From positions 312,283-376,282 of the forward strand of contig JBAYUK010000001.1 of assembly GCA_041675145.1 (NCBI GenBank): DNA of 64,000 nucleotides. Direction: 5' to 3'. Positions 6,335-60,597 of the stretch are shown here, one piece after another (the first letter of the stretch is position 1; every line of letters starts with the position of its first letter). This DNA comes from Patescibacteria group bacterium (GTDB taxonomy: Bacteria; Patescibacteriota; JACPGU01). The translations under genes were made by a program, and so were the position numbers. The notes beneath the pieces were generated by a model. The model was not told the origin of the DNA, ran no database searches, and worked only from the letters and a program-made list of their open reading frames with translations.

Positions 6335-6427
6335 CGCTGTTAAAAGGGGAAGGTTCTTTTATATGCTCGTTTCTGCTATACTATTTTCCACACCAACACA
6401 CATCCCATCTCACAAAAAGGAGCGGTC

Positions 6428-6973: not shown

Positions 6974-7021
6974 CACGCATTTTCTAGGAATCAAAAAGGG
7001 CGCCACCGGCGCCCTTTTTTC

Positions 7022-36212: not shown

Positions 36213-36662
36213 ATGAAACCATACATCCCCGCTCTTGGTATTGCCGGTATTGTTCTTGTTGCCTTTACTACCTGGCATTTCATAAATCCTGAAACAGATG
36301 ACTTAACGCCAGATCCTGTACCAGCCCCTACTCAGACCAATGTGCAGCCAGAAGAAAAACCAGCACAAACCAATACAGCTACCATAGACACCAGCTCACA
36401 GCCACAGATTCCAACGAGCACACAAAAGACCTATACTATGGCAACTGTCTCTCAACACAACACAGCTACTGACTGCTGGATGGTTATTGACGGCGCAGTA
36501 TACGACCCGACTTCTTTTATCCCGCAACATCCAGGCGGAGACCAAATTGTGCTCGGTTGTGGCAAGGATGCTACGAGTTTAGTAACGGGACAACGAAAGC
36601 ACATGAAGCCCCAGGCTCAGGCTATCTTTGATGCATATAAAATAGGGACACTTGCTCAATAA
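36213..36662 (+). CDS. membrane-anchored cytochrome b5-like heme-binding domain protein
   Basis: N-terminal TM and a Pro/Thr/Gln linker. The C-terminal cyt-b5 motif reads DCWMVIDGAVYDPTSFIPQHPGGDQIV. Confidence 0.65.
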   Translation: MKPYIPALGIAGIVLVAFTTWHFINPETDDLTPDPVPAPTQTNVQPEEKPAQTNTATIDTSSQPQIPTSTQKTYTMATVSQHNTATDCWMVIDGAVYDPTSFIPQHPGGDQIVLGCGKDATSLVTGQRKHMKPQAQAIFDAYKIGTLAQ

Positions 36663-36663
36663 C

Positions 36664-37968
36664 ATGAACCTTCGCCCACTCTTCTACGCACTACTGATAG
36701 CAAACCTAGGTACAACCCTCTTCTTGTGGTGGACACATTCTTCGTTCTTTATGACAAGTGGCAACACTGGCCAGATTTTAATTGGCCTTGGACGACTCAT
36801 GGGACTACTGGCTGAGCTGGGAATCCTTGTTCAACTCGTCTTGATTGGACGCATTAGAGTAGTCGAACAAGAGTATGGCTTTGATATGTTAAACCGCCTA
36901 CACCGAGTACTCGGCTTCTACCTGCTTGCAGCACTCATTACCCACCCACTTTTCTTGGTTACAGGATACAGTATCGTAAACCACACTGCTTTTGCCCCGC
37001 AACTCGTAACTTTTTTTACGAGCTGGGAAGACGTATTTGCTGCCTTTCTTGGTCTTTGTGTACTCCTTATTGCAATCAGCACTTCAGTAGCTATTGTTCG
37101 ACGCAAGCTCCGGTATGAGACCTGGTACTTTATACACTTCTTAATCTACCTAGCCATTGCACTGTTCTTCAGTCACCAAGTAAAGAGCGGTGATCTTACT
37201 ACCGGGTCTGCCATGTACTACTGGTACGCAGTCAACTTCACTATCTTCGGTCTTGTTCTTGTCTACCGGTTTATGCGTCCACTCTATCTGCTCTGGGTTC
37301 ACCGTTTTGAAGTTGAGCGTATCGTACAGGAAAGTGCGGTAGTCACTTCTGTATATATTACGGGACGCAACCTTGCTCGTTTTATAATTCAGCCTGGACA
37401 GTTTGCTCACATTAGCTTTTTAGCTCGAGATACATGGTACACTCATCCATTTTCTTTTTCTCAGGTTAATAACGGCAAGAACCTTCGTCTCTCTATTAAG
37501 GCTCTGGGAGACTTCACCGCACAAATAGCACGTATTACGCCCGGCACTCCGGTACTGATCGACGGGCCGTTTGGTGTCTTTACGCAGAAAAAAAATGTGA
37601 CCGGTAAATACCTCTTTATTGCCGGAGGTATTGGCATTACACCAATTCGCGCCCTTGCAGAATCACTGTCCTTAAAGAACGCAGACCAAAGACTCTTATA
37701 TAGCATTCGCAACATGGACGAGCTCGTCTTTGAAGAAGAACTTAAGCAGCTCAACATACCCACAAGCATCATAACCTCACAGTCTCATGAGAACGGATAT
37801 GAACATGGACATATTGATACAGAAAAAATCCAGCGTCTCGCGCCGGACTTTATAACACGAGATATCTATGTCTGTGGTCCACCTACTATGATTGAGACGG
37901 TTTGCACAGCTCTTGCTACCCTAGGAGTACCCAAAAACCAGATTCACTACGAGCGATTTAGTTACTAG
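36664..37968 (+). CDS. NOX/ferric-reductase family flavocytochrome (FRD TM domain + FAD-binding + NAD(P)-binding)
   Basis: Bis-His TM helices with 13-residue spacing (HFLIYLAIALFFSH). HPFSF is the FAD motif. GGIGITP and a CGP motif mark the NAD(P) domain. Start taken at the ATG right after the cyt-b5 stop. Confidence 0.75.
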   Translation: MNLRPLFYALLIANLGTTLFLWWTHSSFFMTSGNTGQILIGLGRLMGLLAELGILVQLVLIGRIRVVEQEYGFDMLNRLHRVLGFYLLAALITHPLFLVTGYSIVNHTAFAPQLVTFFTSWEDVFAAFLGLCVLLIAISTSVAIVRRKLRYETWYFIHFLIYLAIALFFSHQVKSGDLTTGSAMYYWYAVNFTIFGLVLVYRFMRPLYLLWVHRFEVERIVQESAVVTSVYITGRNLARFIIQPGQFAHISFLARDTWYTHPFSFSQVNNGKNLRLSIKALGDFTAQIARITPGTPVLIDGPFGVFTQKKNVTGKYLFIAGGIGITPIRALAESLSLKNADQRLLYSIRNMDELVFEEELKQLNIPTSIITSQSHENGYEHGHIDTEKIQRLAPDFITRDIYVCGPPTMIETVCTALATLGVPKNQIHYERFSY

Positions 37969-38305
37969 TCTTCTCGTTTTTTTTACGCTTTGATCGCATA
38001 CTCACTTCATATGACTCCTCGAGTAGTTCGAGGATTTTTTCATGCTCCTGGATAGTCTTGCCTGAAACCAACCAATAACTCATAGCATACGGTTTGCCGC
38101 CGTGTCCTTGGTATGTAAAAGGGGTGCTTTTCATCTTTTCGTATCGTTCCCTGTTTGTACTATCTACCTTCAAGTACAGCTGGCTATCGACTATGATTCC
38201 GCAGATTACCCCACGCAGATACACCCCATATCCACCAAACATGGCTTTAGTTGTGATCTCTGGATGAAGCGCCTGAATAGCTATAACAAACTTCCCTACA
38301 GCCAT
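37958..38305 (-). CDS. TfoX N-terminal domain-containing protein
   Basis: KAMFGGYGVYLRGVICGIIVDSQLYLKVD...YAMSYWLV follows the TfoX_N pattern. Confidence 0.5.
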   Translation of the reverse strand: MAVGKFVIAIQALHPEITTKAMFGGYGVYLRGVICGIIVDSQLYLKVDSTNRERYEKMKSTPFTYQGHGGKPYAMSYWLVSGKTIQEHEKILELLEESYEVSMRSKRKKNEKTSN

Positions 38306-38853
38306 AAGAGCATTATTCCTGCCATCACCGTCATGAGTAAGTCTTCGAGGAGCGTAACGGTGGTCATGGGTACATTAATCTTAGTACCCAGACAGGCGCA
38401 GCGGAACGGTTTTTTAGATTGGAGAGCAAGCAACACCCCGACACTAGAGATACCCATCACGAGAAATGTCACCCAGTCGGTTACTCGTGGCATTAAGTGA
38501 AAAAGGTAGTTTACTCCTAGCCATAGTTCAATGAAGGGATAAAAGAACCCATAGCCGGATACTTTTTTAGCAACTACATCGTACGTTGCGTACGCTTGGG
38601 CAAACCCCTTCAGGTCGAGTAACTTAAATACCGAGAAGGTGACAAAAAATACCCCCATGAAAATACGAAAAACGATTAACGCGTCCCATAGGCCGGTAAC
38701 GGCTGACCATATAAGCGTTATGAGTACCACTCCGCCGAGAATGGCAAGGAGCGGGGTAATACTTGGTTTTGCTTTCATCATCTGTTCGTGTTCAAACTTA
38801 TTCATTTCTTCCATGGTATATATATTACTAGTATTAATGTGCAAAGAAAGCAA
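38296..38853 (-). CDS. DoxX/MauE-like polytopic membrane protein
   Basis: Four TM segments and a C-terminal Cys pair (RCACLG). Overlaps both flanking genes, consistent with an operon. Family call is tentative. Confidence 0.4.
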   Translation of the reverse strand: MLSLHINTSNIYTMEEMNKFEHEQMMKAKPSITPLLAILGGVVLITLIWSAVTGLWDALIVFRIFMGVFFVTFSVFKLLDLKGFAQAYATYDVVAKKVSGYGFFYPFIELWLGVNYLFHLMPRVTDWVTFLVMGISSVGVLLALQSKKPFRCACLGTKINVPMTTVTLLEDLLMTVMAGIMLLWL

Positions 38854-41080
38854 GGTAGCCTAATGCAAGATACGACAAAATAACAACTGCACCCAAAAGC
38901 CCTCCCCAGGTCATAAACTTCTTCCTTCCAGCAATCCTGATCCACCAGTATAACTGACCTACAACTACTAATGTTGCTACAGTGAAGAGTAGATATATAG
39001 GCAGAGTGTGTCTGAGTAACGGATTAACTAGTACAAAGTGAAAAATAGCCGACATCCAGGCAAAGTAGGCTACTCGGTGTATGAGCTTCCAGCGCGGGTA
39101 GGTAAGCTTTGCGACCATCCAATCAGATGAGGTAAGTGCCATTATCATAAAGCCCGTTAATGCTAAGGAGCCGAATACGACCGGGTTCTTAAGTGGATTC
39201 AGTGACCAGTAGACTGTTGCGAAATCCCACCCATACATCAATGCGTAGACAGATAATGCATGTAGGGTAATAAAAAGCACCCCTACTACTCCTGTATAGC
39301 GACGCACTCGCCAGTGGTCAGCCAGTGCTGGGATGAACTTGAACACAATACTCATCAGCAATGCCGCCCCAATCATGGTGGCGCCAGTTAAGGCGAATGA
39401 ACGGATAAGGGAGGACGCAAGGTTTCCCGGTACTAGATAAAAGAACTGGAGACAAAACTGCACTGCCCAAAACAAGATACCAGCACCAAGAACTGTTAAA
39501 ATAAGTTTTGTGTAGCGTACTGGTGGAGCAGGTAGGTTACTTGGACTGTTATTAACTTCCCCATCCTCTATGCCCACCTCAATACTATCCCCTACTATTC
39601 GTACTGTATATATTTTTTGAGAATATTTGGCAGGCCCTGTAACTACTTTACCGTCTGTGATACTGAACTTTGATCCATGCCACGGACAGGTAATAGTTTT
39701 ACCGTCAAAATCTCCGTCACACAACGGTCCACCCATATGTGAACAGGCATTATCCATAGCCACATATATATTGTCTACTGTGAATAAGGCGAGCTTTTTA
39801 TCTCCTACCGTGATACACCTCTTATTTTCCTTAGTGAACTCAGATACCTTAGCCACTGCCACCCAATGTGTTCCTTTACTACTCGTACTAGAGTTCATAG
39901 TAGTTGTGTTATGTGAAATTGAAATATTATTTCTTTGAGGGTTCAAGATACTAGATACTTTACTGTTCTTGCCTGCTATTAAATAAGCAATGGTCTTGCC
40001 TGCAAGAGCGCTAAAGACGAGCCCCTGACCACCAAAACCAGTAATAACGTGTACATTAGGCACATGAGGATGAGTAAAAACATAGGGCACCTCATCAGGA
40101 GTAACATACAAGCTACCAGACCAAAAATTGGTAATAGCAGTATACCCAGGCACGTGGGCATCTAAATACGGGGTTAGTGTAGTGTAGGCATCCTGGGACT
40201 TGATCTTATCGTACGAAATATCTGCCCCGCCCAGGATCAAGGTATGGGGATTTATCATTCTGAAATAAAAGTATGGGTGATCTACATCCCAGTACTGCTC
40301 AGCACCGATCGGCTGTGTATGGTACTGTGCTGCCAGCACATATGTGAGACGCGGGACAACCAGACTTGAAAGCTCTGGAAACAACGTATCGTCTGGCTTA
40401 CCAGTTGCTACCACTATATGCTTTGCCACTACCTTCCCTTTAGCTGTTCTGACTTCATTACCAGCAACAGATACTACCCCGGACTCTTCAAAGAGTAACA
40501 CACCTTTCTTAGCTAGAAGACTCGCTAGTGCGGATATAAACTTACGAGGATGAAATCTACCCTCTTTGTCATACCGGATAGCTGAGGCAAAAACATCCCC
40601 GTTCTTACCTTCAACCAAAGAAGTGTTCTTATCTACGGTACGCACAAGATCCCACTCCTTCAAGAGACCAGGGTCCTTTTTAGTATATGAGATCCAGTAG
40701 GACTGGTTAGACAGAAAGTCGCAGCGTATTTTGTTATCCGCTATTATCTTAAAGAGTTCTTTCTGAGCCCCATACAGTTCGAGAGCAAGATCAGTAACAA
40801 ACTTCTCTCCATGAAGCTTCTTTAAAGCAATAAGAGAGGTATCTAGTGGACGGGTCAAAAATCCAGTGGTTGCCCCCGTATCTCCGTTGGCAAGAAGGCC
40901 TTTTTCCAGCAATACCACCGAGAACCCTGACTCAACTAAATACCAGGCGCTCATAAGGCCCACTATACCGCCACCGATCACTACCACATCAGCAGCAACC
41001 TCTTTCTTAAGTGGTCTATAGATGAGATCATCCGGTTCGTCCTCATACCAGACCGGAAGAGTATTGATGTCTTGTTGCAT
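38834..41080 (-). CDS. three-domain fusion: FAD-dependent oxidoreductase (DAO-like) + Rieske [2Fe-2S] + C-terminal 6-TM ferric-reductase-like heme domain
   Basis: VVVIGGGIVGLMSAWYL is the FAD Rossmann fold. CSHMGGPL...CPWHGSKF is the Rieske CxH...CxxH. The C-terminal 6 TM carry His pairs (LIHRVAYFAWMSAIFH). Confidence 0.7.
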   Translation of the reverse strand: MQQDINTLPVWYEDEPDDLIYRPLKKEVAADVVVIGGGIVGLMSAWYLVESGFSVVLLEKGLLANGDTGATTGFLTRPLDTSLIALKKLHGEKFVTDLALELYGAQKELFKIIADNKIRCDFLSNQSYWISYTKKDPGLLKEWDLVRTVDKNTSLVEGKNGDVFASAIRYDKEGRFHPRKFISALASLLAKKGVLLFEESGVVSVAGNEVRTAKGKVVAKHIVVATGKPDDTLFPELSSLVVPRLTYVLAAQYHTQPIGAEQYWDVDHPYFYFRMINPHTLILGGADISYDKIKSQDAYTTLTPYLDAHVPGYTAITNFWSGSLYVTPDEVPYVFTHPHVPNVHVITGFGGQGLVFSALAGKTIAYLIAGKNSKVSSILNPQRNNISISHNTTTMNSSTSSKGTHWVAVAKVSEFTKENKRCITVGDKKLALFTVDNIYVAMDNACSHMGGPLCDGDFDGKTITCPWHGSKFSITDGKVVTGPAKYSQKIYTVRIVGDSIEVGIEDGEVNNSPSNLPAPPVRYTKLILTVLGAGILFWAVQFCLQFFYLVPGNLASSLIRSFALTGATMIGAALLMSIVFKFIPALADHWRVRRYTGVVGVLFITLHALSVYALMYGWDFATVYWSLNPLKNPVVFGSLALTGFMIMALTSSDWMVAKLTYPRWKLIHRVAYFAWMSAIFHFVLVNPLLRHTLPIYLLFTVATLVVVGQLYWWIRIAGRKKFMTWGGLLGAVVILSYLALGYLAFFAH

Positions 41081-41107
41081 ACATATATTGTATCACAAAT
41101 AAAAGAG

Positions 41108-41140
41108 CGGCTCCGTAGAGCCGCTCTAGTTCATTGTCTT
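41108..41140 (-). terminator. rho-independent terminator downstream of the purC/purE fusion
   Basis: AGAGCGGCTC-cgta-GAGCCGCTCT. The minus strand carries a TTTTATTT tail. Confidence 0.65.
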
Positions 41141-41153
41141 GAAAAGCCAATGT

Positions 41154-42518
41154 TCACAATAATGTGAAGTTGGACTGAGTTTGTTCTTGAATCTGCCGTG
41201 CATAGGCATAGGCCACAGGGTTAGACCGTCCCAGGATTTGTAGCGCATGAAGCATCGCATTGCCTGGATCCAAAATGGTCGATGCTGGAGTCATGCTGGG
41301 GGTTCTAAGAGATGACCACACATCCTCCGGCCTTTTTTCCCAGCCATTGGGCACTGAGATAACAGGAACAGAGCAGTTAGCAGAGAGGGTTGGTCCAGCG
41401 CCGTTTGATCTTCCAATAAAGGCGATGACAACCGTCTCTGGATTCCGTTGAAGAATCTTGTTCAGTCCAAAAGTGCCGTGGACAGGAGACTTATGCATGG
41501 ATTTGGTCAACACTGCCATCTCTACCCAATCCGTTCTTTCGCAGTACGGATTTGTAGTTAGACGCTCAAATGCCAAACCCAGATCGTCAATGTTATCCTT
41601 TTCGCTTCCGGTCCAAATAAGGACATGCGACTTTGGAATGCGCCAAGACTTCACTTCATCAAGCGTCCAGCGATACAGCTCGAGCATTTCATCCAGTGCT
41701 CCGCCTTCGCGGTAGAACTGTTTGTCTCGATACTTCCCTTCTGAATCGGTCACTCGCCAGTTGTCGGCCGTGACTTCATCAGCAAGAAGGAGCCTTCCAT
41801 CTTCAGTGACCCCGAATTCAAGCTTGAAGTCGGCCTTATTAAAACCACGCAGTTGCCACGCGCGTTCAAAGATGAAGAAGATGAGCCTCGTCCAGTAGTC
41901 GATCTCACACCAGTGCTCTGCTGCATGTTTGGGCAACCAGTTATTTCTCAGGTCGGCTGGAATTTTCTTTTTCAGATACCAGGGTTGCTTGGGCTCGAAG
42001 ATTTCCATACTCTCAAGCATGATACTGGAGTGATCCAGCTGCCAGAAAGGTAAATCTCCAACATGCCCAGTGCTCCAGTGAGGCACAATGAGAGGGTCGT
42101 CACAAGGCAGGTCGATCTCTCCCCACTTCTTGCCGGTGGTTTTCAAAAAGAACTCCACGAGAAGCTGGGGGAACGCCTGACCTTTTTCCAGATGCGGCAT
42201 GCGCTGCAAGTAGCTGCCATGCGCGCTGCGCCGAGCAACCACTTCGAGCTCAATCATGTCTACCTTCTTCATCACCATCTCGTTGGGGTTATCCCCTGGT
42301 CGAAGGTAGGCGGTCGGAACCCCGGCGGCATTAAGCAATTCGAAAATTGCAATAGAAGCCTGACAGGCAAGGGCTCCTTTTCCCTTCAGAGCATCTTTCT
42401 TCGCTCCATCACCTGCAGTGATAGCGTCTTTGAAGCGCAACAGCACTTCACCGTTTCCGATATCGAAGACCTGTTTGGTCTTGCCCTCGGTGAGTAATTG
42501 TTCAGGTCCAAGTTTCAT
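41154..42518 (-). CDS. purC/purE: bifunctional SAICAR synthetase + AIR carboxylase (PurC-PurE fusion, eukaryotic PAICS-like)
   Basis: The N-terminal LTEGKTKQVFDIGNGEVLLRFKDAITAGDG... is SAICAR synthetase. The C-terminal VIAFIGRSNGAGPTLSANCSVPVISVP is a PurE-type AIR carboxylase. Confidence 0.75.
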   Translation of the reverse strand: MKLGPEQLLTEGKTKQVFDIGNGEVLLRFKDAITAGDGAKKDALKGKGALACQASIAIFELLNAAGVPTAYLRPGDNPNEMVMKKVDMIELEVVARRSAHGSYLQRMPHLEKGQAFPQLLVEFFLKTTGKKWGEIDLPCDDPLIVPHWSTGHVGDLPFWQLDHSSIMLESMEIFEPKQPWYLKKKIPADLRNNWLPKHAAEHWCEIDYWTRLIFFIFERAWQLRGFNKADFKLEFGVTEDGRLLLADEVTADNWRVTDSEGKYRDKQFYREGGALDEMLELYRWTLDEVKSWRIPKSHVLIWTGSEKDNIDDLGLAFERLTTNPYCERTDWVEMAVLTKSMHKSPVHGTFGLNKILQRNPETVVIAFIGRSNGAGPTLSANCSVPVISVPNGWEKRPEDVWSSLRTPSMTPASTILDPGNAMLHALQILGRSNPVAYAYARQIQEQTQSNFTLL

Positions 42519-42599
42519 GGGGCGTGTAGCCTCCTTCTGTGTAGTAGCGCTACGCGCTCCATCTCCATTCTAACAAAAAATGGCTCTATGATCAACAAA

Positions 42600-42630
42600 A
42601 AACCACCCTTGAGATTGTGGGTGGTTTTTT
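42600..42630. terminator. bidirectional rho-independent terminator
   Basis: AAAAAACCACCC, loop, GGGTGG, then TTTTTTCT. Confidence 0.7.
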
Positions 42631-42651
42631 CTGTTCTATTCTTAATGTGTT

Positions 42652-43425
42652 TTAGGTACGAATACCCTTCCCTTTATTGAGCAGTACTACACAGAGAATT
42701 CCCAGTGCTAAAGAAAAAGCAATCAAGATACCAAGACTTACTAACACTGGCACTGAAGAAAAACCGTAAAATCCGTAACGGAATCCGTCGATCATATATA
42801 CGATCGGGTTAAACTTTGAAACAACCTGCCAAACACCAGGTAGAGCCGAAATAGGGTAAAACACTCCTCCGAGATAGGTCAGTGGAGTGAGAACGAAAGT
42901 CGGAAAGATTCCTACATCATCAATCTTTTTCGCAAAAATTCCATTAAGAAGTCCACCAAACGAAAACGTGATAGCGGTTAATACCATAAAGATCAGAACT
43001 AGTCCTAGATGTGCGATCTGTGGATGGGTAAAGAAGATAGAGATCAAAAATACGATGAGACCCACTAAGATTCCACGCAGTATACCTCCCATACCAAAGC
43101 CAGCCACAATCACCCAGTTCGGGGTAGGAGAAACCAAAATCTCATCTATGTTGCGTTGCCACTTGGTAAAAAAGAATGAACTCACGGTATTGGTAAATGC
43201 CGAGGTAATAATCGCCATCATAACCAGTCCCGGAACGAGAAAGGCCATATACGAAACGCCATTAATTGCTGCTACCTGGCGCCCAACGAAACCACCAAAA
43301 ACTACAAAGTACAAGCTCTGCGTAATGACTGGAGGAACCAGTGTCTGGGTCCAGATACGCAAGAACCGACGTGTTTCTTTGCGTGTCAGGGTTGAGAGTG
43401 AAATAAGTGTTTTATTCGTAGTCAT
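42652..43425 (-). CDS. ABC-2 type transporter permease
   Basis: 257 aa, 6 TM, with the ABC-2 family pattern. Immediately downstream of the ATPase gene. Confidence 0.75.
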   Translation of the reverse strand: MTTNKTLISLSTLTRKETRRFLRIWTQTLVPPVITQSLYFVVFGGFVGRQVAAINGVSYMAFLVPGLVMMAIITSAFTNTVSSFFFTKWQRNIDEILVSPTPNWVIVAGFGMGGILRGILVGLIVFLISIFFTHPQIAHLGLVLIFMVLTAITFSFGGLLNGIFAKKIDDVGIFPTFVLTPLTYLGGVFYPISALPGVWQVVSKFNPIVYMIDGFRYGFYGFSSVPVLVSLGILIAFSLALGILCVVLLNKGKGIRT

Positions 43426-43430
43426 AGTCC

Positions 43431-44336
43431 TTATTTTTTAACAAGATCTAAAAAGAGTCCTTCTAGTCGGTTACCCTTTGGTCGCATCGAGACCGTTACA
43501 ATACCCGCTTCGTGTAAGGCACTAGTAAGATCAGTAACGCTCTGGCCTTTCGGTAGTCCTACTTCAAGCGTGTCGTGGTCAATGATAGTAATATCGAAGC
43601 CTGAAACGTTTTCTGCGCCAGCAGTCTTACTCACTGTTACGGTATAGTACTCTTTCTCAAGTACTGATAGTAGGTTCTTCACTGAGTCGTTACGAATTAC
43701 CTCTCCTTTATGCATAATAGCGGCGTTACGACAGAGTTGTTCTACCTCCTCTAAGTAGTGAGTGGTAAGTAGTATGGTGGTTCCGGCTGCGTTAATACGC
43801 TTTAAGTATTCCCACATACCGTGCCGTAACTCCACATCTACTCCAGCAGTAGGCTCATCGAGAATCAAAAGCTTAGGGTCGTGCATGAGGGCGCGGGCAA
43901 TCATCAGGCGTCGCTTCATACCACCAGATAAGGTCTGTGACTTTTCGTTTCTCTTCTCCCAGAGACCGAGGTTTTTTAAGACCTCCTCAGAGCGAGGCAA
44001 AGCAACATCTGCCGGCACGCCGTAGTACCCCGCCTGGTCAAGCAAAATATCTTGTACTTTTTGAAAAATATTAAAGTTAAACTCCTGCGGCACGACACCA
44101 ATCATAGCTTTTGCCGCCGAGAAATCCTGATCTATATCTATACCAAAGACTTTCACCGTTCCGGCGCTTTTATTCACTAAACTGGTTACAATACCAATAA
44201 TAGTAGTCTTCCCAGCACCGTTAGCACCCAGTAACGCAAAAAAGTCACCACTTTCTATGGTGAGGTCAATTCCTTTGAGTGCTTCTACTCCATTGGAATA
44301 TATTTTCTTAAGTCCCTTAATTTCCAGTGCGTTCAT
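43431..44336 (-). CDS. ABC transporter ATP-binding protein (ABC-2/DrrA-like exporter ATPase)
   Basis: GANGAGKTT, LSGGMKRRL and LILDEPTAGVD. Confidence 0.85.
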   Translation of the reverse strand: MNALEIKGLKKIYSNGVEALKGIDLTIESGDFFALLGANGAGKTTIIGIVTSLVNKSAGTVKVFGIDIDQDFSAAKAMIGVVPQEFNFNIFQKVQDILLDQAGYYGVPADVALPRSEEVLKNLGLWEKRNEKSQTLSGGMKRRLMIARALMHDPKLLILDEPTAGVDVELRHGMWEYLKRINAAGTTILLTTHYLEEVEQLCRNAAIMHKGEVIRNDSVKNLLSVLEKEYYTVTVSKTAGAENVSGFDITIIDHDTLEVGLPKGQSVTDLTSALHEAGIVTVSMRPKGNRLEGLFLDLVKK

Positions 44337-44357
44337 ATCAGGTAAGTATACCAGAGA

Positions 44358-45209
44358 TTAGCTGTTCTTGGAAGATGTTCTCACTTTTCTGATAAACTGG
44401 CGAGTCTTTTTTACTACAGAGCTCTTCATAACCTTGGAAACAAAACGAGTTCTCAAACTTGCCTGACCAAAATCCCAACCAAGCCGATCCATCAGCTCAC
44501 GAATTTCTAAGTACCAAATTTCGTACCCGAAGCCACTGGGATGGAACATGTCCGCAGCGTAAAACTTTTTTACATTCGGTATAAACGGATCGTCTTTAAT
44601 ATCTCGGTAGAGATCTACGTATTCAACCTGAGGAAATTCTAAAATCACAATACGATACGCTTCTCGCATAATAAGCGTACGGTACTCCATCAGCACTTTC
44701 AGATACCATGGCCAAAACGGTGCAGCACCCGCATTCCCACAATGGAGCACAATCACATGGCTACAAACACTAGTTGCTTTTTTAAGCAGCGAACGCAAAT
44801 GCTTTTTCGTATCTGCGAGCAGTACTGGATGGACGATATCATTACCACCAATCTGAATCACCATAAGATCAATACTACGAAACTCTCTCGGGTCAAAGCG
44901 TTGAGACAACTCACCCAGCTTCTGTCCGACAACACCTCGGTTGATAATAGTAGCATCTGGAAAATCCGTGCCAAAACGACCGGCAATACTGTCGCGGTTA
45001 TCTATAGCTCCTGTTCCAGCTGTAGTACTATCTCCAACAAACAAAAACCGATGCTTTCCGCCACGTATAATCCGCTCATATGGAACGGTGCGAAAAGCCA
45101 TCTTTCTTCCAATGCAAATAAAATAGATCCAACGCAATATATCCCAGGCAACGCCGAGCAATAACAATCCTAAACTCAGTTGTAGTACGGTTACAACAAG
45201 CAGTGTCAT
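44358..45209 (-). CDS. membrane-anchored SGNH/GDSL hydrolase
   Basis: Trimmed to MTLLVV... N-terminal TM, then FVGDSTTAG (GDS block), GGNDI and DMFHPS (DxxH). Confidence 0.6.
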   Translation of the reverse strand: MTLLVVTVLQLSLGLLLLGVAWDILRWIYFICIGRKMAFRTVPYERIIRGGKHRFLFVGDSTTAGTGAIDNRDSIAGRFGTDFPDATIINRGVVGQKLGELSQRFDPREFRSIDLMVIQIGGNDIVHPVLLADTKKHLRSLLKKATSVCSHVIVLHCGNAGAAPFWPWYLKVLMEYRTLIMREAYRIVILEFPQVEYVDLYRDIKDDPFIPNVKKFYAADMFHPSGFGYEIWYLEIRELMDRLGWDFGQASLRTRFVSKVMKSSVVKKTRQFIRKVRTSSKNS

Positions 45210-45302
45210 GTGTGTTTGTGTGTATCTGACTAGATTACTCCTAGTATACCAAAAATAGATAGAAAATAGTATAATCATCGAACCACATCGTAGGAGGAAT
45301 AC

Positions 45303-45770
45303 GTGCACCAAAAACCCATACCTTCTATCATGGAGGTAATTGAAGAGGTAGGGAGAAGCATTAATCTCTCGCCCACTACCACTTTTTTTCTCTACCTGTT
45401 TCTTAAAAAACTCGAAATGAATCCAGAACTGGCTCATGGAACCATGATCCAAGTAAACGTCGATCCCATTGTTGAAGAAAAGTTCCACACCATGGACGAG
45501 ACATTAGGGAAAGCAACCAACAGTAAATACCGAGCTTTTCTGGCAAACATGCTTCCACTTATGAGGTTGGTAGCTGATTTTAGCCTGGGTCTTCATCACC
45601 TTGAGCACTGCAATGGTCACAGCGACTATTTATGTGCCTTGCTTGACCTCATTCCCGACCAGCCAACACTGTTTAGGCTTCTTCTCATGTACATCTTAGA
45701 GGATGCTAATAATATGGAAAGTGAAGTCCCGGACTTCTCCCAAATTCCTTTTTCCTATGCGGACGAGTAA
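45303..45770 (+). CDS. hypothetical protein (155 aa, GTG start)
   Basis: AGGAGG RBS 6 nt upstream of the GTG. No domain recognised. Confidence 0.4.
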   Translation: MHQKPIPSIMEVIEEVGRSINLSPTTTFFLYLFLKKLEMNPELAHGTMIQVNVDPIVEEKFHTMDETLGKATNSKYRAFLANMLPLMRLVADFSLGLHHLEHCNGHSDYLCALLDLIPDQPTLFRLLLMYILEDANNMESEVPDFSQIPFSYADE

Positions 45771-45790
45771 TACACGACTGAACAACAAAG

Positions 45791-45825
45791 CGCCCCAACC
45801 AAATGGTCGGGGCGTTATTTTGTTT
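45791..45825. terminator. bidirectional rho-independent terminator
   Basis: GCGCCCC, loop, GGGGCG, then TTATTTTGTTT. Confidence 0.7.
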
Positions 45826-45842
45826 CGAGGTATGTAAGGAGA

Positions 45843-47333
45843 TTAAACCTTGAGATCTCGTGCTGGCGGAGAGAGCTCTCTATCAGCATAGGTCTCTTTG
45901 AGATTTTCTCGAACTTCTGCCGCGAACAGCCGAGCCTGGTTAGGGGCTCGCCCAATCATGGTTTTAGGATCGAGAAAGTTTTGAATTTTGTCATGGACTG
46001 GGGCAAGCATAGGCTCGTCCATCATCCGACCAAGCATGTCGTAAGACTCGGCGCCACTCTTGCGGAAACTTTCAACTGAGGCTACGCTATGCACGCGTAG
46101 TAAATCATGGATCACTTGACGATCCGCTCCGTGACTTTCCACCATCTCATTAATGATTGAAACGGTTGCAAGGAAAGGCAGGAACTTATTGAGGTGTGTT
46201 TCAATGCGTGCTGGAAAAACTCTCAGCCCGTCGAACACATTGTGCGCAACAAGACAGGTCGCATCGGCGTAAAGACCAGCTTCGGAAAGCGTAATGCGAC
46301 CCGCTGCTGAGTCATCTAAAGTTCGCTCAAGTCCCTGACTTGCATGCGTTTGCAAAGCACAGTTTGATAACCCTATCAGCATCCTATCCAGAGCATTGCC
46401 CCGTTCTGAGCGCATTGGGTTCTGTTTGAAAGCTTGCGCACTGCTGCCGATCTGATCAACACCAAAAGGCTCATGGATTTGATCCAACATTGCCAGAATC
46501 CGGACATCAAAGAACATCTTTGAAGCAGAAGAACCCAGCTTAGCAAGAGCCAAAACGAAGTCAGCATCGTATTGGCGTGAATAGGTTTGACCTGTTATGG
46601 ACAAAATCTTTCCATTAAAGTCAAAGTCGTTGGCAACTTGTTGCTCTAATAGCAGAACAAGACTTTCATCCCCTCTGCAGAGCTGCATGAGTGATTGCTG
46701 AGTGCCGGTGGCATCTTTAATGCCACGGAAAGGAAGCTCATTGCGCACTCGACGGATATCTAAGTATGCGTGGTTTAAATCCTCCAACCACATAGCAATC
46801 CGCTTGCCAAGGGTTGTGGGCTGTGCCATTTGAAGATGGGTAAACCCAGCACAAATCAAATCTGCATGTTCCTCGGCCAAAAAGGTCATCTTATACATAA
46901 CCCTTGCAAGACGCAACAACACCAAATCCAAAGCCTCGCGCATAGTAATTAGTTTTGCGTTATCTGTGATGTCGCAACTCGTAAGAGCCAGATGAATAAA
47001 CCGGGCTAGCTCCTCCAGGCCGTGCTCTCTGCAAATGTCCTGGAAAGCGTGAACATGAGCCATGACATCATGGCGATTCTTGCGTTCGTACTCAGCTGCC
47101 AGATCAATGTTAATAAGAGGGATCAACCCGTACATCTTCTCCAGCTGGCCCTCGGGTATTTTAATAAGACCCATGCCCTTCATGTGTTTTAGAATGGTGT
47201 ACCAGAGCATTCTCCATGTGGTGAACTGCTTGAAGTCTGAAAACACTTTCTGCATTTCTTCAGATGTGTAGCGGCTCGCAAGAGGGTGTTTCCATTCTTT
47301 TGATGGAAGTCTGAAAGATGGCTGTGTTGTCAC
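45843..47333 (-). CDS. purB: adenylosuccinate lyase
   Basis: 496 aa of the fumarase/ASL superfamily, with the PurB N-terminus RYTSEEMQKVFSD and conserved lyase motifs. Confidence 0.8.
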   Translation of the reverse strand: MTTQPSFRLPSKEWKHPLASRYTSEEMQKVFSDFKQFTTWRMLWYTILKHMKGMGLIKIPEGQLEKMYGLIPLINIDLAAEYERKNRHDVMAHVHAFQDICREHGLEELARFIHLALTSCDITDNAKLITMREALDLVLLRLARVMYKMTFLAEEHADLICAGFTHLQMAQPTTLGKRIAMWLEDLNHAYLDIRRVRNELPFRGIKDATGTQQSLMQLCRGDESLVLLLEQQVANDFDFNGKILSITGQTYSRQYDADFVLALAKLGSSASKMFFDVRILAMLDQIHEPFGVDQIGSSAQAFKQNPMRSERGNALDRMLIGLSNCALQTHASQGLERTLDDSAAGRITLSEAGLYADATCLVAHNVFDGLRVFPARIETHLNKFLPFLATVSIINEMVESHGADRQVIHDLLRVHSVASVESFRKSGAESYDMLGRMMDEPMLAPVHDKIQNFLDPKTMIGRAPNQARLFAAEVRENLKETYADRELSPPARDLKV

Positions 47334-47466
47334 TCTACGTTCCTACCTTTTTCTTGAATTTTTTAGGTGCAGTGCCTTATGGACACAGCGCACTAGAAAC
47401 TAATATACCAAAAAACGGCTCTAAATACAAGAAAAACGCCTTTCGGCGCTTATCTTGATATAAAAA

Positions 47467-47538
47467 TGCTCTCGGCAGGAATCGAACCTACATCACCAGC
47501 TCCGCAAGCTAGCGTCCTATCCGTTGAACGACGAGAGC
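47467..47538 (-). tRNA. tRNA-Arg (anticodon GCG)
   Basis: Hand-folded cloverleaf. The acceptor is GCUCUCG/CGAGAGC, D-arm GUUC-AACGGAUA-GGAC, anticodon arm CUAGC-UUGCGGA-GCUGG and T-arm GUAGG-UUCGAUU-CCUGC, with discriminator A. A terminator hairpin follows at about 47437-47456. Confidence 0.7.
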
Positions 47539-47543
47539 ACACT

Positions 47544-48017
47544 TTATTTCCGCAACCAATTAGCCAAACTTTCTGAAAAGTCAGTCACTTTTCCTTCTAC
47601 CAAAAGGATATCTACCGGGAAAAGTCGGGTTACTTGCTGAGCGTCCTGAGTACCGAGTGGAATTGCTATCTGAGTTGCAATCTTACTTTTTGGCACTAAG
47701 TAAAGCGTATGGTTTCCCTGCCCTATCCAGTAGCCATTATACTGATCAAAGCTGTGAAATCTACCATCCACCATGACACCACTGGCCGTCACTCCGATAT
47801 TAACTGGCTTTTTATCTGTCGTAAGGTATGAATAAAGAGCTAGCGGCAATAGAGCAAACACCAGTGCCATGAGCCACTGCGTGGTATATATAGCATATCC
47901 AATGACTGCTACGAGGATAATAAATACAAGGGCTATGTTGGTTGTGTTAAAAGAACGAGTCTGGAACCCTTCGGTTTGCCAGGCTAAGAGAATTTTTTCA
48001 CTGTTTGTTTGTGCCAT
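47544..48017 (-). CDS. hypothetical membrane protein
   Basis: ORF with two TM segments. Start taken at MAQTNSEK. Confidence 0.4.
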   Translation of the reverse strand: MAQTNSEKILLAWQTEGFQTRSFNTTNIALVFIILVAVIGYAIYTTQWLMALVFALLPLALYSYLTTDKKPVNIGVTASGVMVDGRFHSFDQYNGYWIGQGNHTLYLVPKSKIATQIAIPLGTQDAQQVTRLFPVDILLVEGKVTDFSESLANWLRK

Positions 48018-56738: not shown

Positions 56739-56825
56739 GAGCAACTGTTACTCGCTTTAGATCTTCTTCTATAGTAAAATATTAGCTGTATTGAGTACTT
56801 AGTAAACTAAGTACTCGTTTTTCCT

Positions 56826-56898
56826 GGGCGATTAGCTCACTTGGTAGAGCGCTTCCTTGACGTGGAAGAGGTAAGAAGTTCGAATCTTCTATCGCCCA
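56826..56898 (+). tRNA. tRNA-Val (anticodon GAC)
   Basis: Cloverleaf GGGCGAU/AUCGCCC, D GCUC/GAGC, anticodon arm CUUCC-UUGACGU-GGAAG and T-arm AGAAG-UUCGAAU-CUUCU, with discriminator A. Confidence 0.85.
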
Positions 56899-58448
56899 TT
56901 AAAGGCACCTAAATCGAATACTGGATGTTTCCGGAGTCGTGGTGCACAAAGATAGTCCAATGGTTCATTCAGGACCACACGGGCTATTTTTTTGTCCTTA
57001 ATCTCAATTCTCTTGAAAAACGTTTGTACGAGCATGTTCTTGAGCTCTGGCTGGGCCTTTTTGTATGTATAGTGACAATCTGTCGCTAATGATGTAGCGA
57101 TTTCTATGGTTCTAATAGCGGTACGAATCCTATTTTCCACCTTACCGAGCTCCTCTAGTAGCCTAGTTTCTTCAAGACCAAGCTCTACTTTGATCTTGTC
57201 ATACAGTTCAATGTCACTTGGCAACATGTGGTCTTGGCCTATAAGTTGCAGTACCAGGTTCTTTTTTTGGAGTTTAATATTGTCGATCTTCTTTGTGATG
57301 TCCTTTCGCGCATTTTCGTAGGTTGCTTGCTCGTTCGCGAATAGATCTCGCACTCTCGCTTTAATTTTGGTAGTAACCTCATCTGGCAAGTGAATCTTTT
57401 TGATGATTCCTTCGAGTTCAGTTGAAATATCGCTCTCATGGACAAATGATTGAGAGCAAGCCACCCTTTCATTCTTTTGAGCTTTCATGCAGCGCAGGTA
57501 GAGTATTACACGCTTACTGCTCGTCTTGTGCTCCTCAAGTGTCTGTCGACTTCCACATACCCCGCACCAACTCACGCCTTTTAACACAGAGAAGAGCCGG
57601 CGGTGTCTAGCACCACCGCTAGATCTTACATCAAGCAAAGCCTGGACCTTGTCGAAAACGTGCTGATTCAAGAAGAGCTCGTGTGTGCCCTCTGGATTCA
57701 CGAATCCACTCCACTCGATTATGCCAACGTAGAGTTTATTGCGGAGTATTTTTTCGACGTGACTGGCGTGTAGTTTGCCTTTCTCATTTCTGTTAGAACG
57801 AACCTTAAAACCCTCTTCCTGAAGGGTAGCTGTAAGAGACTTGATCGAATAGCTGCCGCTTGCATACAGCTCAAACGCTCTTATGACCCATTTTGCCTCT
57901 TCCCAGTTCACTTCAAGCCATGTGCGTGCTTTGTGGACCGACAGTCGTTCCTGGACATTTTTATAACCGTACGGTGCTTGCCCAGGCCATTGTCCTCCTC
58001 TTGCTTTCTGCAAGAGCCCAGCTTTTACCTTAGAACCACTTTGGCGCGAAAAAAACTCAGCTACAGTTGAAAGTACACCCTCAAGCATTTGCCCTCCGGG
58101 TGTATCGTCAATTCCTTCGGTGGCCGAACAAATCTTAATATCGTTTTGCTCAAGCTCCATTTTGGTAATAGCAAAATCCATGCGATTACGTGCAAAACGG
58201 CTGATATCGTAACAAACCACTGCCTTTACGTTTTTATCAGTGCGGCAACGCTCTAAAAGCATTTGAAACTGAGGCCTCTTGGTTGTCCGGGCACTTTCAC
58301 CCTCGTCAGCGTATACGTCTTTTTCCGGGCTCACATGGTAACCGTTTTCGTAGGCAAACTTAAAACATTCTTCTCGTTGCGTTGGGATAGAAAGCTGTTT
58401 TTCGGCTTGTCGATCAGTTGATACTCGTAGGTATATAAGGGCTGTCAT
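56889..58448 (-). CDS. large serine recombinase (resolvase-type catalytic domain + recombinase domain + zinc ribbon + coiled coil)
   Basis: MTALIYLRVSTDRQ is the catalytic Ser motif. 519 aa. Its stop overlaps the tRNA-Val 3' end. Confidence 0.85.
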   Translation of the reverse strand: MTALIYLRVSTDRQAEKQLSIPTQREECFKFAYENGYHVSPEKDVYADEGESARTTKRPQFQMLLERCRTDKNVKAVVCYDISRFARNRMDFAITKMELEQNDIKICSATEGIDDTPGGQMLEGVLSTVAEFFSRQSGSKVKAGLLQKARGGQWPGQAPYGYKNVQERLSVHKARTWLEVNWEEAKWVIRAFELYASGSYSIKSLTATLQEEGFKVRSNRNEKGKLHASHVEKILRNKLYVGIIEWSGFVNPEGTHELFLNQHVFDKVQALLDVRSSGGARHRRLFSVLKGVSWCGVCGSRQTLEEHKTSSKRVILYLRCMKAQKNERVACSQSFVHESDISTELEGIIKKIHLPDEVTTKIKARVRDLFANEQATYENARKDITKKIDNIKLQKKNLVLQLIGQDHMLPSDIELYDKIKVELGLEETRLLEELGKVENRIRTAIRTIEIATSLATDCHYTYKKAQPELKNMLVQTFFKRIEIKDKKIARVVLNEPLDYLCAPRLRKHPVFDLGAFNGR

Positions 58449-58499
58449 AAAATCTCCTATTCATTTTTTACTCATTATAATTTGGGTAGACATTCTTTG

Positions 58500-59054
58500 C
58501 TATAGCGTATAGTCCGTTTTTATTCCTTGCTCTTTTGCTCTTTGCTCTGCTACTACCATGTCAGCACGGAGACGTGCTAGAGCAACATAGTGTTCGTGCT
58601 GTTTCTCTGGTGGTAGGAACTCTATCATTGATTTAAAGTCATCGGGAGTAAACCGTACGGGCGGTTCTGTTTTGACAGGATTTTTTGAATCCCACCCCTC
58701 AAAGTACCTGAGCCACAGCTCGACATCTGATGCCTTGCCGTGCTTAATACATTGCTCCGTAAGAGCGTGGAGAATGTCAGGCTTGAACTCCATAATTCTG
58801 AACACCTGCTCTCTGTGTAGGTTGTCTCGAAAATCATCGCGTTGTTTCCATCTACTGAGGTGGCTTGGTGTCAGATTGTGTTTCTTGGCAAATGCCTCCG
58901 CAGTTGCTACCCCGGCAGTGTGTTTCTCTATTTGTGACAAGAGCGACCATGCGAAGAAGTCCGCATACACATCTTTCTTGTAAGGACCGGTCGATCGCGG
59001 TTTCTTTGCCGTACTGATTTTTTGAGAATTAACGTTTTGATCGTCTTTTTTCAT
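58500..59054 (-). CDS. phage-associated HTH-containing protein (terminase-small-subunit-like?)
   Basis: 184 aa. The central HTH-like stretch reads KKHNLTPSHLSRWKQRDDF. Confidence 0.4.
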   Translation of the reverse strand: MKKDDQNVNSQKISTAKKPRSTGPYKKDVYADFFAWSLLSQIEKHTAGVATAEAFAKKHNLTPSHLSRWKQRDDFRDNLHREQVFRIMEFKPDILHALTEQCIKHGKASDVELWLRYFEGWDSKNPVKTEPPVRFTPDDFKSMIEFLPPEKQHEHYVALARLRADMVVAEQRAKEQGIKTDYTL

Positions 59055-59101
59055 AATAAATTGGCTTAAATATAATTCTTATTGATTTACTGAAATGTTA
59101 A

Positions 59102-59344
59102 TTAGTCGGGCTTGTCATAGAGCCTTGTTTTAATGAGCCGCATTTGCACTAAAAGCTTCTGTGGCTCAAGACGTAACTTACCCTCTTTGTAGCGCTGTAT
59201 CGTGCCCTCAAGCGAATCAGAGTGCAAAAATACGAATATTGCCCGTGGTCCGCCTGAACGTTCAATTTTGATCATCTGTTGGTCCAGCGACATCAGGGCT
59301 GCTGCCAACCACATGTCGCTTGTCTGAAAGTTTTGTTTCATCAT
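59102..59344 (-). CDS. DUF5659-like small phage protein
   Basis: MMKQNFQTSDMWLAAALMSLDQQMIKIERSGGPRAIFVFLHSDSLEGTIQRYKEGKL follows the DUF5659 pattern (TSDLYLAxxL...FxF). Confidence 0.45.
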   Translation of the reverse strand: MMKQNFQTSDMWLAAALMSLDQQMIKIERSGGPRAIFVFLHSDSLEGTIQRYKEGKLRLEPQKLLVQMRLIKTRLYDKPD

Positions 59345-59532
59345 ACTTGGGTTTATTAATAGGCGATTTATTGGTAGCGGATTCGACTGCTTGGTCAAGC
59401 TGCTGCTGAGTGTCCCGAGCAACGAGCACGCAAAAACGAGCGATTTGGTCTATCGCCTGAGCTATTCCTTCCTCAAATTGTGGCTCAGTGTGCTGCTCGT
59501 TGGTTTTCATACACATAAAAATAATTTTGCCC

Positions 59533-59572
59533 GCATTTCCAATTGTGGAATTATGCGGGCAAAATCAAATGT
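59533..59572 (-). terminator. strong rho-independent terminator (12-bp perfect stem)
   Basis: TTTTGCCCGCAT, a 16-nt loop, then ATGCGGGCAAAA. The minus strand has a TTATTTTTAT tail. Confidence 0.65.
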
Positions 59573-59598
59573 GTATGAAAGTCTGGACCAAAGTCTGG

Positions 59599-60597
59599 TT
59601 ACTTTTTCTTGCGTTCACGAGGTTTTCTCTTGCGAGTACTCGTGCTATTCAAGTTACGCTTGTTCTCTTTTTGGCATTCTTTGCTGCAAGTTACCTGCTC
59701 TCTACCGCCCTTTTTAGGAGAAAAAGTGGAGTTGCATATAATACAAAGCTTACGCCCCAAGCGGACATTGTATTTTTTGTAGATATCATCCCAAGAGGGA
59801 GTTTTCTTGTTTACTCCCTGGAGTAGCCATAGGAGTATCTTGGAAGTTTCGTAAAAGTCGCTTGTAAACTTCGAAGCCCCCGACGCTCCCTCTTTTGTCT
59901 TTAAGGGAAAGTATCGGCTTAGGAGTGGTCTCCAGTAGAGTATTGGGTCAATCTTGAACCCTGATTCAGCAAACCATACGGCCATGTTTTCCAGTTCCTT
60001 GGGAGACAGGTTGTGTTTTTGTAGTATCTTACTGGCAACTGAACGTAAGTTGTCTTTTTCCCAGCGTGCCGTAAAATCGGTAACTTTTACATTCTCATCT
60101 TCAAGAAGGAAAGGATTTGCGACAGCCGTTTTACTGACGGAAGTAATCATTTCTTCGTGGGCCGTCAGGATGCTATTGATAACAGAGAAAGCTTCGTGAT
60201 ACCTAGCAATCTGGGTTAGGAGAGTGGTTTTACTATTCGTCAAAAAGCGCTCTATCACTTCCATATCCTCATCTACAATCTTGATAGTTCTGTTTTGTTG
60301 GACCAAAGCAAGAGAAAATATCTGTAAGGGCGTATAAAAGGCCATGGAGTGTGCGGAGGCCTCAGACGCTACTTCGTATCGTTTCAGCCACCCCGCAACG
60401 CCGTAGGCGATCTGAGAGCCTGCGGGTGCCACGATCTGAATGGCTGGCGTGAGCAAGCCCTGTTGTTGGTAAAAAGCAAGCTCCCGCCTGCTTGTAGTTA
60501 TGCCACGATCACTGACATGACGAATAAACATATTTACGTTCAGGAGGTCCTTTTCTCGAAAGGGAGCCGATAAATTGTATGGTTTTTCATTCTTCAT
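59599..60597 (-). CDS. hypothetical protein (332 aa) with a C-terminal CxxC...CxxC zinc ribbon and a basic tail
   Basis: CIICNSTF...CSKECQ, then the basic tail KRNLNSTSTRKRKPRERKKK. Confidence 0.45.
   Translation of the reverse strand: MKNEKPYNLSAPFREKDLLNVNMFIRHVSDRGITTSRRELAFYQQQGLLTPAIQIVAPAGSQIAYGVAGWLKRYEVASEASAHSMAFYTPLQIFSLALVQQNRTIKIVDEDMEVIERFLTNSKTTLLTQIARYHEAFSVINSILTAHEEMITSVSKTAVANPFLLEDENVKVTDFTARWEKDNLRSVASKILQKHNLSPKELENMAVWFAESGFKIDPILYWRPLLSRYFPLKTKEGASGASKFTSDFYETSKILLWLLQGVNKKTPSWDDIYKKYNVRLGRKLCIICNSTFSPKKGGREQVTCSKECQKENKRNLNSTSTRKRKPRERKKK

Follow-up and report, generated by a model that had tools for sequence, protein, structure and literature searches.

Gene content of the purCE-purB locus

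The window studied here, a stretch of 64,000 nucleotides (nt) from a Patescibacteria group bacterium, a member of the candidate phyla radiation (CPR), carries two genes of purine biosynthesis, purCE and purB, on the same strand (Table 1). The product of purCE joins a synthetase for the pathway intermediate succinylaminoimidazole carboxamide ribonucleotide (SAICAR), PurC, to a class II carboxylase for aminoimidazole ribonucleotide (AIR), PurE, in the manner of the animal enzyme PAICS, and the product of purB is an adenylosuccinate lyase (ADSL). The two genes are not adjacent but lie 3.3 kb apart. The initial annotation had described a PurC-PurE open reading frame (ORF) of 454 amino acids (aa) and purB, with an exporter, a hydrolase and a hypothetical gene between them, and all of these features were recovered in place. 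In NCBI, both proteins are assigned to a 'Patescibacteria group bacterium' metagenome-assembled genome (MAG) on a 428,244-bp contig, PurCE as MFA7308827.1 under the name 'phosphoribosylaminoimidazolesuccinocarboxamide synthase' and PurB as MFA7308832.1 under the name 'lyase family protein'. Identical PurCE and PurB sequences were found in the NCBI, ENA and Logan assemblies, in which only the start of PurB was called differently; the 496-aa form (NCBI/JGI) is preferred here over the truncated 446-aa form (ENA/Logan), because the alignment with human ADSL begins at residue 13. The ENA copy belongs to ERZ27247358, contig k141_651027, and the reads carry the accession SRR6484325.

Table 1. Features of the purCE-purB locus, with positions in the window
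Feature	Position	Strand	Description
purCE	41154-42518	-	454 aa; bifunctional SAICAR synthetase / class II AIR carboxylase, PAICS-type fusion
PurC (SAICAR synthetase) half	41649-42518	-	about aa 1-290
PurE (class II AIR carboxylase) half	41178-41633	-	about aa 296-447
Family-specific insertion, T-TGKKWGEIDLPC before DDP	42102-42140	-	about aa 127-139
Private insertion of about 18 aa	42015-42071	-	about aa 150-168; gap in all other family members
purB	45843-47333	-	496 aa; eukaryote-type adenylosuccinate lyase, highly divergent
PurB catalytic/signature loop GSSAQAFKQNPMRSER	46401-46448	-	aa 296-311
YadH-like ABC-2 permease	42652-43425	-	NF011648, 352 bits, and Pfam
ABC ATPase	43431-44336	-	Pfam
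GDSL/SGNH hydrolase	44358-45488	-	Pfam; N-terminal hydrophobic segments (membrane-anchored); 44358-45209 in other gene calls
Hypothetical ORF	~45303-45770	opposite to the pur genes	146-155 aa
tRNA-Arg(GCG)	47466-47539	-	directly upstream of purB
Intrinsic-terminator-like hairpin	41104-41127	-	10-bp stem with 7 GC, T-rich tail; 27 nt past the purCE stop
Intrinsic-terminator-like hairpin	45791-45814	-	10-bp stem with 8 GC, T-rich tail; 29 nt past the purB stop
Third hairpin	47451-47434		follows tRNA-Arg
Sigma-70-like promoter match, TTGATC-17-TAGAAT with TG	42567-42595	-	in the 133-nt gap upstream of purCE

PurCE has the domain order and both active sites of PAICS

Pfam searches with PurCE identified SAICAR_synt (PF01259; E=1e-44) at residues 9-128 and in a second stretch at about 200-257, followed by AIRC/PurE (PF00731; E=3.4e-11) at residues 332-447. 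The PurC half thus precedes the PurE half in one polypeptide, as in PAICS, and both halves align to that enzyme. A sequence search of the PDB with the full-length protein returned PAICS of Bombyx mori (4JA0, E=1.2e-51) and of human (2H31, E=1.6e-44) as best matches, both halves being covered, and no stand-alone PurE at E<=1e-3. Supportively, the AlphaFold2 (AF2) model, built from a 21-sequence alignment, reached a mean per-residue confidence (pLDDT) of 84 and a predicted template-modelling score (pTM) of 0.88, and its best fold match in the PDB was human PAICS 6YB8_A, over the full length (E=2.8e-31, template-modelling (TM) scores 0.63/0.68, 461 columns). The description of the protein as PAICS-like in the initial annotation is therefore upheld in sequence as well as in fold.

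The active-site residues of both human PAICS sites have been listed previously (PMC9376930), and the motifs GKTK, TAGD, E..V, FFLK, DDP, KLEFG, LLADEVTADNWR and DKQFYR of the PurC half align to those of the SAICAR synthetase site. In human numbering, the SAICAR synthetase site retains G16-K17-T18-K19 (GKTK), T40-A41-G42, E97, V99, K131, D137, the DDP motif, K191, E193, D207, D212, W214, R215, K228 and R232. The exceptions are N43D, where D is also found in Bombyx and in the bacterial family described below, and S213N, where N is also found in Streptococcus pneumoniae PurC. The AIR carboxylase site likewise retains G273-S274...D277, which reads GSEKD within TGSEKD, S301-x-H303-K304 (SMHK) and G330-R331-S332-N333-G334 (GRSNG). 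Compared with the animal enzymes (human 2H31, 6YB8 and 7ALE; Bombyx mori 4JA0), the window protein thus has the same domain order and conserves both active sites at 36-38% identity over aligned columns. It differs from them in an extra insertion of about 13 aa before DDP, a private loop of about 18 aa, a C-terminal E.RL.N extension, K instead of S at position 276 (human numbering), the motif ADEVTADNWR in place of ADVIDNDSWR, and its bacterial host. Within the AF2 model, internal low confidence is confined to the private loop (pLDDT <50 at 151-157).

The insertion of about 13 aa (KT.GKKW....L.C; FFLKTTGKKWGEIDLPCDDP in the window protein) was examined in an alignment of 120 homologues together with human and Bombyx PAICS fragments. 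It proved to be common to all bacterial PurCE proteins and absent from animal PAICS, and W132 within it is invariant in our alignment A1.

The PurE half belongs to class II

The initial annotation had asked whether the PurE half is of class I or class II. When this half alone was compared with the PDB, PAICS ranked first (E=4e-14), followed by the class II enzyme of Treponema denticola (E=2.8e-4) and then by class I enzymes (E=0.038). The fold comparison gave the same ranking, as the C-terminal domain matched T. denticola PurE with a TM score of 0.79 and a root-mean-square deviation of 2.3 A, and class I enzymes with TM scores of 0.62-0.68 and deviations of 3.5-4.8 A. The SMHK motif of the window protein aligns with human S301-A302-H303-K304, and it is this residue after the catalytic His that separates the classes, class II having HK and class I having HR (PMC10484210). 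Furthermore, IGRSNGAGP aligns with human G330-R331-S332-N333-G334-L335 (GRSNGLGP in PAICS) and represents the class II form of the 70s loop. In class I PurE, the motif GGAAHLPG takes the place of the class II motif GRSNGxGP.

The characterised T. denticola AIR carboxylase (3RG8/3RGG), which shares the class II signatures, is also the stand-alone structure that best matches the C-terminal domain; unlike the window domain with its fused PurC, it is a separate protein of 159 aa, and the identity is about 22%. These results demonstrated that the C-terminal domain does align to PurE and that it is a class II domain by its HK pair, by its GRSNGAGP loop and by the ranking of matches in both sequence and fold.

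PurCE is a member of a large bacterial family

The fusion had been considered rare in bacteria, which was found to be wrong: a scan of GTDB with one genome per species detected a PurCE-type fusion in at least 548 species representatives. The carriers include Verrucomicrobiota, Xanthobacteraceae (Pseudolabrys, Rhodoplanes), Dependentiae, Polyangiaceae and Tepidisphaerales, and within CPR they include Saccharibacteria, Gracilibacteria, Paceibacterota and Vogel-, Taylor-, Staskawicz- and Giovannonibacteria. When PurCE was compared with 5.8 billion clustered proteins, 2,588 matches were obtained, the top 120 of which were all PurC+AIRC fusions of 412-538 aa with 41-46% identity; among those that carry a name, Verrucomicrobiota MAGs predominate, accompanied by some Hyphomicrobiales and a single Paceibacterota MAG. 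The family, which databases name phosphoribosylaminoimidazole carboxylase / SAICAR synthase, shares architecture, insertion and class II motifs with the window protein (examples come from Chthoniobacterales, Pseudolabrys, Dependentiae and Parcubacteria MAGs), at 40-47% identity over the full length.

The best NCBIfam models were purC and purE for PurCE and purB for the lyase, and all three scores lay under the equivalog cut-offs. For the fusion, the other family members also fall under these cut-offs (purC 76-98 bits, purE 55-65 bits, compared with 117 and 47.5 bits for the window protein), and the low scores of PurCE are therefore a property of the family and no sign of decay.

Next, the gene context of the family was considered in loci of relatives (numbered with the prefix L). 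PurCE is followed by PurB, PurH and PurM in L036, and stands in the clusters PurH-PurB-PurCE in L056 (Vogelbacteria) and OMP (orotidine monophosphate) decarboxylase-PurCE-PurB-PurH in L086 (Taylorbacteria). It is paired with PurB in L018 (Saccharibacteria; PurB-PurCE) and in L085 (PurCE-PurB), lies within 2-4 kb of PurD and PurM in L044, and closes the cluster PurT-PurP-PurP-x-GuaA-x-PurCE in L013 (Dependentiae). Because several of these loci place PurCE beside purB, purH, purM, purD or purT, the bacterial PurCE is a normal enzyme of de novo purine synthesis. A solitary purCE was found in other CPR relatives (L012, L055, L058, L083 and L084); since this arrangement is common among them, a purCE without pur neighbours says little about the pathway. 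As a separate observation, the two tandem PurP-like genes of L013 (L013:4935-7063; DUF1246/DUF1297, archaeal-type FAICAR synthetase) bring a step of archaeal style into a bacterial purine cluster.

PurB is a divergent lyase of the human ADSL type

The 496-aa protein contains Lyase_1 and ADSL_C domains in Pfam, the latter scoring 32.5 against a cut-off of 32.7. Human ADSL (5NX8) matched it with 362 bits (E=2.5e-107) and about 45% identity over residues 13-474, while the other types of PurB scored far lower, at about 105 bits for the Bacillus subtilis/Thermotoga maritima type and about 54 bits for the Escherichia coli type. The domains and catalytic motifs are shared with the human-type ADSL structures (5NX8, 2J91 and 2VD6) and with the bacterial members of the same clade, and RHDVMAHVH, GFTHLQ (GFTH.Q), TGTQ, the GSSA serine loop and K..NPMRSER are all kept. 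The His of TH.Q and the Ser and Lys of the signature loop are presumably catalytic, in line with the established roles of these residues in ADSL.

The top database matches of PurB were mixed and comprised insects and fish (44-48% identity) together with Planctomycetota, Myxococcota and Alphaproteobacteria (43-45%), so the human-type ADSL is common in bacteria too. Among the CPR relatives, the PurB encoded beside PurCE is mostly of the E. coli type (ASL_C); only L085 has the type found in the window, at 36% identity.

Recent transfer of the two genes from a eukaryote is not supported

The initial annotation had raised the possibility that the two genes were acquired from a eukaryote or host. 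In favour of a recent horizontal transfer of PAICS and ADSL, the best solved-structure matches of both proteins are animal enzymes, and the insects and fish mentioned above stand among the top matches of PurB. The remaining evidence contradicts this proposal. PurCE scores 350-390 bits against bacterial fusions but 155-179 bits against PAICS, and it carries the insertion of the bacterial family that PAICS lacks; its top 120 matches include none with a eukaryote name and none from UniRef or EukProt. PurB was equidistant from the animal and the bacterial members of its clade (BLOSUM distances of 0.600 and 0.598, respectively, the two groups themselves being 0.39 apart), which marks it as an outlier, on a long branch, to the clade as a whole and not as a sequence nested among eukaryotes; no column separated eukaryotic from bacterial PurB at 85% under a crude labelling of the sequences. 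Neither gene departs from the rest of the window in GC content, GC content at third codon positions (GC3) or codon usage, and both enzyme types are widespread in bacteria. The insertion shared with the bacterial family and the native codon usage thus lend no support to a recent transfer from a eukaryote, which we regard as effectively refuted.

A genomic island, or another signature of recent horizontal transfer, was also rejected, as GC, GC3 and codon usage show nothing anomalous and the genes have no neighbouring integrase. In a neighbour-joining tree, PurCE formed a long branch at the base next to the outgroup, probably through long-branch attraction, so that no donor lineage can be named. 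Synteny with the nearest sampled relative, L087, covers BipA, a hypothetical protein of about 160 aa and tRNA-Arg(GCG) (L087:4379-4450; 85% nt identity) and stops exactly at the tRNA, after which L087 goes on with AhpC and unrelated genes and the window with purB. This break is weak evidence, because the L087 contig is only 6 kb long and its BipA only 81% identical.

Probable role of PurCE and PurB in purine synthesis

On the basis of the sequence comparisons and the structural model, PurCE and PurB are probably functional enzymes of de novo purine synthesis whose partner genes are dispersed in the genome, a reading to which we assign a probability of roughly 60%. The class II PurE domain would convert AIR and CO2 directly to carboxyaminoimidazole ribonucleotide (CAIR), without PurK or ATP, the PurC domain would join CAIR with aspartate at the expense of ATP to give SAICAR, and PurB, transcribed separately, would release fumarate from SAICAR to give aminoimidazole carboxamide ribonucleotide (AICAR) and would also convert adenylosuccinate to adenosine monophosphate (AMP). 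The two proteins would thereby cover three consecutive steps, from AIR to AICAR. The remaining genes of the pathway would most likely be scattered elsewhere, as is common in CPR, and both proteins, coming from large bacterial families, would have been resident long enough to take on the codon usage of the host. From their domain identity, class II signatures, active-site conservation and family membership, and from the pur clusters of relatives, we infer that PurCE and PurB are catalytically active and that the rest of the pathway is present. A complete de novo route to inosine monophosphate (IMP) was reported in 32% of 399 CPR MAGs (PMC11608272), and CPR bacteria often lack de novo purine synthesis (PMC8407418).

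Several observations weigh against this reading, and they concern the surroundings of the genes as well as the sequences of their products. The surroundings were surveyed over the window plus 10 kb on each flank, that is, about 84 kb of a source contig of 377-428 kb. No further purine gene was present among the Pfam-annotated gene calls of this region; purF, purD, purN, purT, purL, purM, purH, purA and gua genes were all absent from it, as was a gene for PurK or another ATP-grasp protein. The sole match in tblastn searches with PurH, PurM, PurD, PurT, PurP and GuaA of relatives was PurB itself, which bears out the initial remark that the rest of the pathway is not nearby. As for the proteins, each diverges further from its family than any other member does. 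Of 147 positions with a conservation of 95% or more in 87 bacterial members, PurCE keeps 113, the lowest value of the 88 sequences (the next keeps 126). On average it is 44% identical to the family, compared with about 65% between members; no close orthologue was found among the 5.8 billion clustered proteins. PurB keeps 115 of 157 near-invariant positions, whereas all 119 relatives keep at least 140, and it reached 294.7 bits with TIGR00928 purB (E=1e-87), under the cut-off of 326.2 bits, compared with 410-420 bits for its clade mates. Its signature loop reads SSAQAFKQNP where the family has S-S-A-M-[AP]-Y-K-R-N-P, and the three substitutions (M300Q, Y302F and R304Q), which set it apart from the human-type ADSL group, fall on residues that are M in 119 of 119, Y in 118 of 119 and R in 118 of 119 relatives. 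The housekeeping genes of the window are less divergent, with BipA, RuvB, YchF and RelA/SpoT scoring far above their cut-offs and BipA being 81% identical to the nearest relative and about 70% identical to many Parcubacteria-type CPR. Unusually fast evolution of both proteins in this lineage would fit these data, and so would relaxed selection on a decaying pathway.

The latter possibility corresponds to a partial or relict pathway, in which most de novo genes were lost, PurB was retained for the step from IMP to AMP (with PurA) in a salvage economy, and PurCE either decays as a leftover or belongs to a three-step module from AIR to AICAR fed by intermediates of a host or partner. Besides the isolation of the genes, the exceptional divergence of their products and the substitutions in the PurB loop, the unequal retention of near-invariant positions in the two halves of PurCE speaks for it, with 71 of 100 kept in the PurC half but 41 of 45 (91%) in the PurE half, and in about two thirds of CPR MAGs no complete de novo module is found (PMC11608272; PMC8407418). 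Nevertheless, both ORFs are intact, without frameshifts or stops, and identical in three assemblies, the catalytic residues are retained, the AF2 model is confident, and a separate terminator follows each gene. Several of the changes in the PurC half, moreover, are not random but tend toward the consensus of stand-alone PurC (LADE..DN.R): the most altered motif of PurCE, in which ADVIDNDSWR has become ADEVTADNWR through five changes in an otherwise invariant substrate-binding motif, resembles stand-alone PurCs such as that of S. pneumoniae (LADEFSPDNCRLW), and this likeness argues against random decay. A solitary purCE, as noted above, is common in CPR relatives. No supply of AIR without the upstream enzymes is known, apart from the AIR-riboside salvage of Salmonella. 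Taken together, a relict pathway appears unlikely, but it is the main rival of the preferred reading. The narrower case, in which only the steps AIR to CAIR to SAICAR to AICAR were retained, with no de novo genes upstream or downstream, is considered improbable.

The same substitutions could also be read as a change of function, in which a PurB-like lyase and a PurC-like ligase act on other substrates, for instance on another N-succinyl adduct. This would accord with the score of PurB under the equivalog cut-off and its unspecific NCBI name, with the three changes at invariant loop positions and the five changes in the substrate-binding motif of PurCE, and with the record of the lyase superfamily in giving rise to new specificities. 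It conflicts with the fact that TIGR00928 purB outscores every other model for the lyase by a wide margin, at 295 bits compared with at most 103 bits for the other NCBIfam families (XcbD, nitrosuccinate lyase, CMLE), and that the identity with human ADSL amounts to 45% along the full length of the protein. The changed PurC motif has its match in genuine stand-alone PurCs, and the PurE half, 91% conserved, makes sense only as a supplier of CAIR to a SAICAR synthetase. A neofunctionalised pair is accordingly judged very improbable, and functional de novo enzymes remain the preferred explanation of the two genes.

Transcription signals and the intervening genes

The purine genes and the block between them look like three separate transcription units, namely purB, the GDSL-ABC block and purCE, given the terminator-like hairpins after purB and purCE and the promoter-like site before purCE (Table 1), all of which come from consensus scans. 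The promoter match is a consensus match only, and the regional count of such matches was not above the shuffled expectation. A riboswitch or other leader upstream of purCE or purB was also sought and rejected, as an Rfam E-value scan of 40900-47700 gave only the tRNA and three chance-level matches. The extent of the hydrolase gene depends on the gene caller, the longest ORF encoding 376 aa and ENA calling instead a 283-aa protein and an opposite-strand ORF of 146 aa.

A functional link of PurCE with the ABC-2 exporter or the GDSL hydrolase was rejected and the proximity judged to be chance, because an ABC ATPase lies within 10 kb of PurCE in only 6 of 80 related loci, at varying distance and on varying strands, and because terminator and promoter signals separate the units in the window. 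The intervening ABC/GDSL block is thus probably unrelated to the purine genes. Homologues of the window pair do come after PurCE in one Staskawiczbacteria locus (L072:5572-8731), where PurCE, an ABC ATPase (35% identity) and an ABC-2 permease (29%) share a strand in this order; this is probably a coincidence.

Other features of the window

Directly downstream of purCE, a redox cluster that is unusual for a CPR genome extends over 36213-41080. It begins next to purCE with a 748-aa fusion of an FAD oxidoreductase (DAO), a Rieske domain and a multi-transmembrane region, followed by MauE and TfoX_N, and on the other strand it contains a ferric-reductase/FAD/NAD protein and a cytochrome b5 protein. 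Superoxide dismutase, DsbB and thioredoxin are encoded further along the window, at 53-55 kb.

A cluster of the non-oxidative pentose-phosphate pathway at 3904-7328 comprises a split transketolase, the N- and C-terminal halves of which are separate genes, ribulose-phosphate 3-epimerase and RpiB. This cluster could be a source of ribose-5-phosphate and phosphoribosyl pyrophosphate (PRPP) for nucleotide synthesis or salvage.

The region 56825-60597 is probably an integrated mobile element, in which tRNA-Val(GAC) (56825-56899) is abutted by a large serine recombinase of 519 aa (56889-58448, minus strand) and four small or hypothetical ORFs. L036 likewise has a related recombinase and a small ORF, both located upstream of PurCE. 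Next to this region, a LOOT RNA (Rfam RF03000) was detected at 60693-60820 on the plus strand, with 79.6 bits against a gathering score of 46.4, and is directly followed by an ORF with an SNase domain (60867-61847). An OLD-family nuclease (AAA_15/AAA_21 and an OLD-like TOPRIM domain) starts at about 62864 on the plus strand and runs past the end of the window at 64000 (L003:11998-13656), and a radical SAM/SPASM gene follows outside the window; the nuclease region may be a defence locus.

Implications

Class II PurE and PurCE are still framed as essentially eukaryotic, in statements of the textbook kind as well as in papers (PMC3261824; PMC10484210), and a literature search on bacterial PurCE fusions found nothing specific, although the wide bacterial spread of the fusion is already visible in automated annotations. 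The present results correct this picture, since the PAICS-type fusion with a class II, PurK-independent AIR carboxylase constitutes a large bacterial family and is no eukaryotic peculiarity. This spread matters for PurK and class I PurE as proposed antibacterial targets, and it bears on thinking about the origin of eukaryotic PAICS and ADSL.

For the organism itself, purCE and purB are enzymes of ordinary kinds that are widespread in bacteria, and it is the divergence of these two copies that sets them apart. If only the three-step module were retained, purine intermediates would have to be exchanged with a host or partner, with AIR or its riboside entering and AICAR/ZMP leaving the cell; to our knowledge, metabolic complementation of this kind has not been described for CPR bacteria. 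With its divergent and isolated purCE and purB, this bacterium is a reasonable test case for whether nucleotide pathways in CPR are whole or fragmentary.

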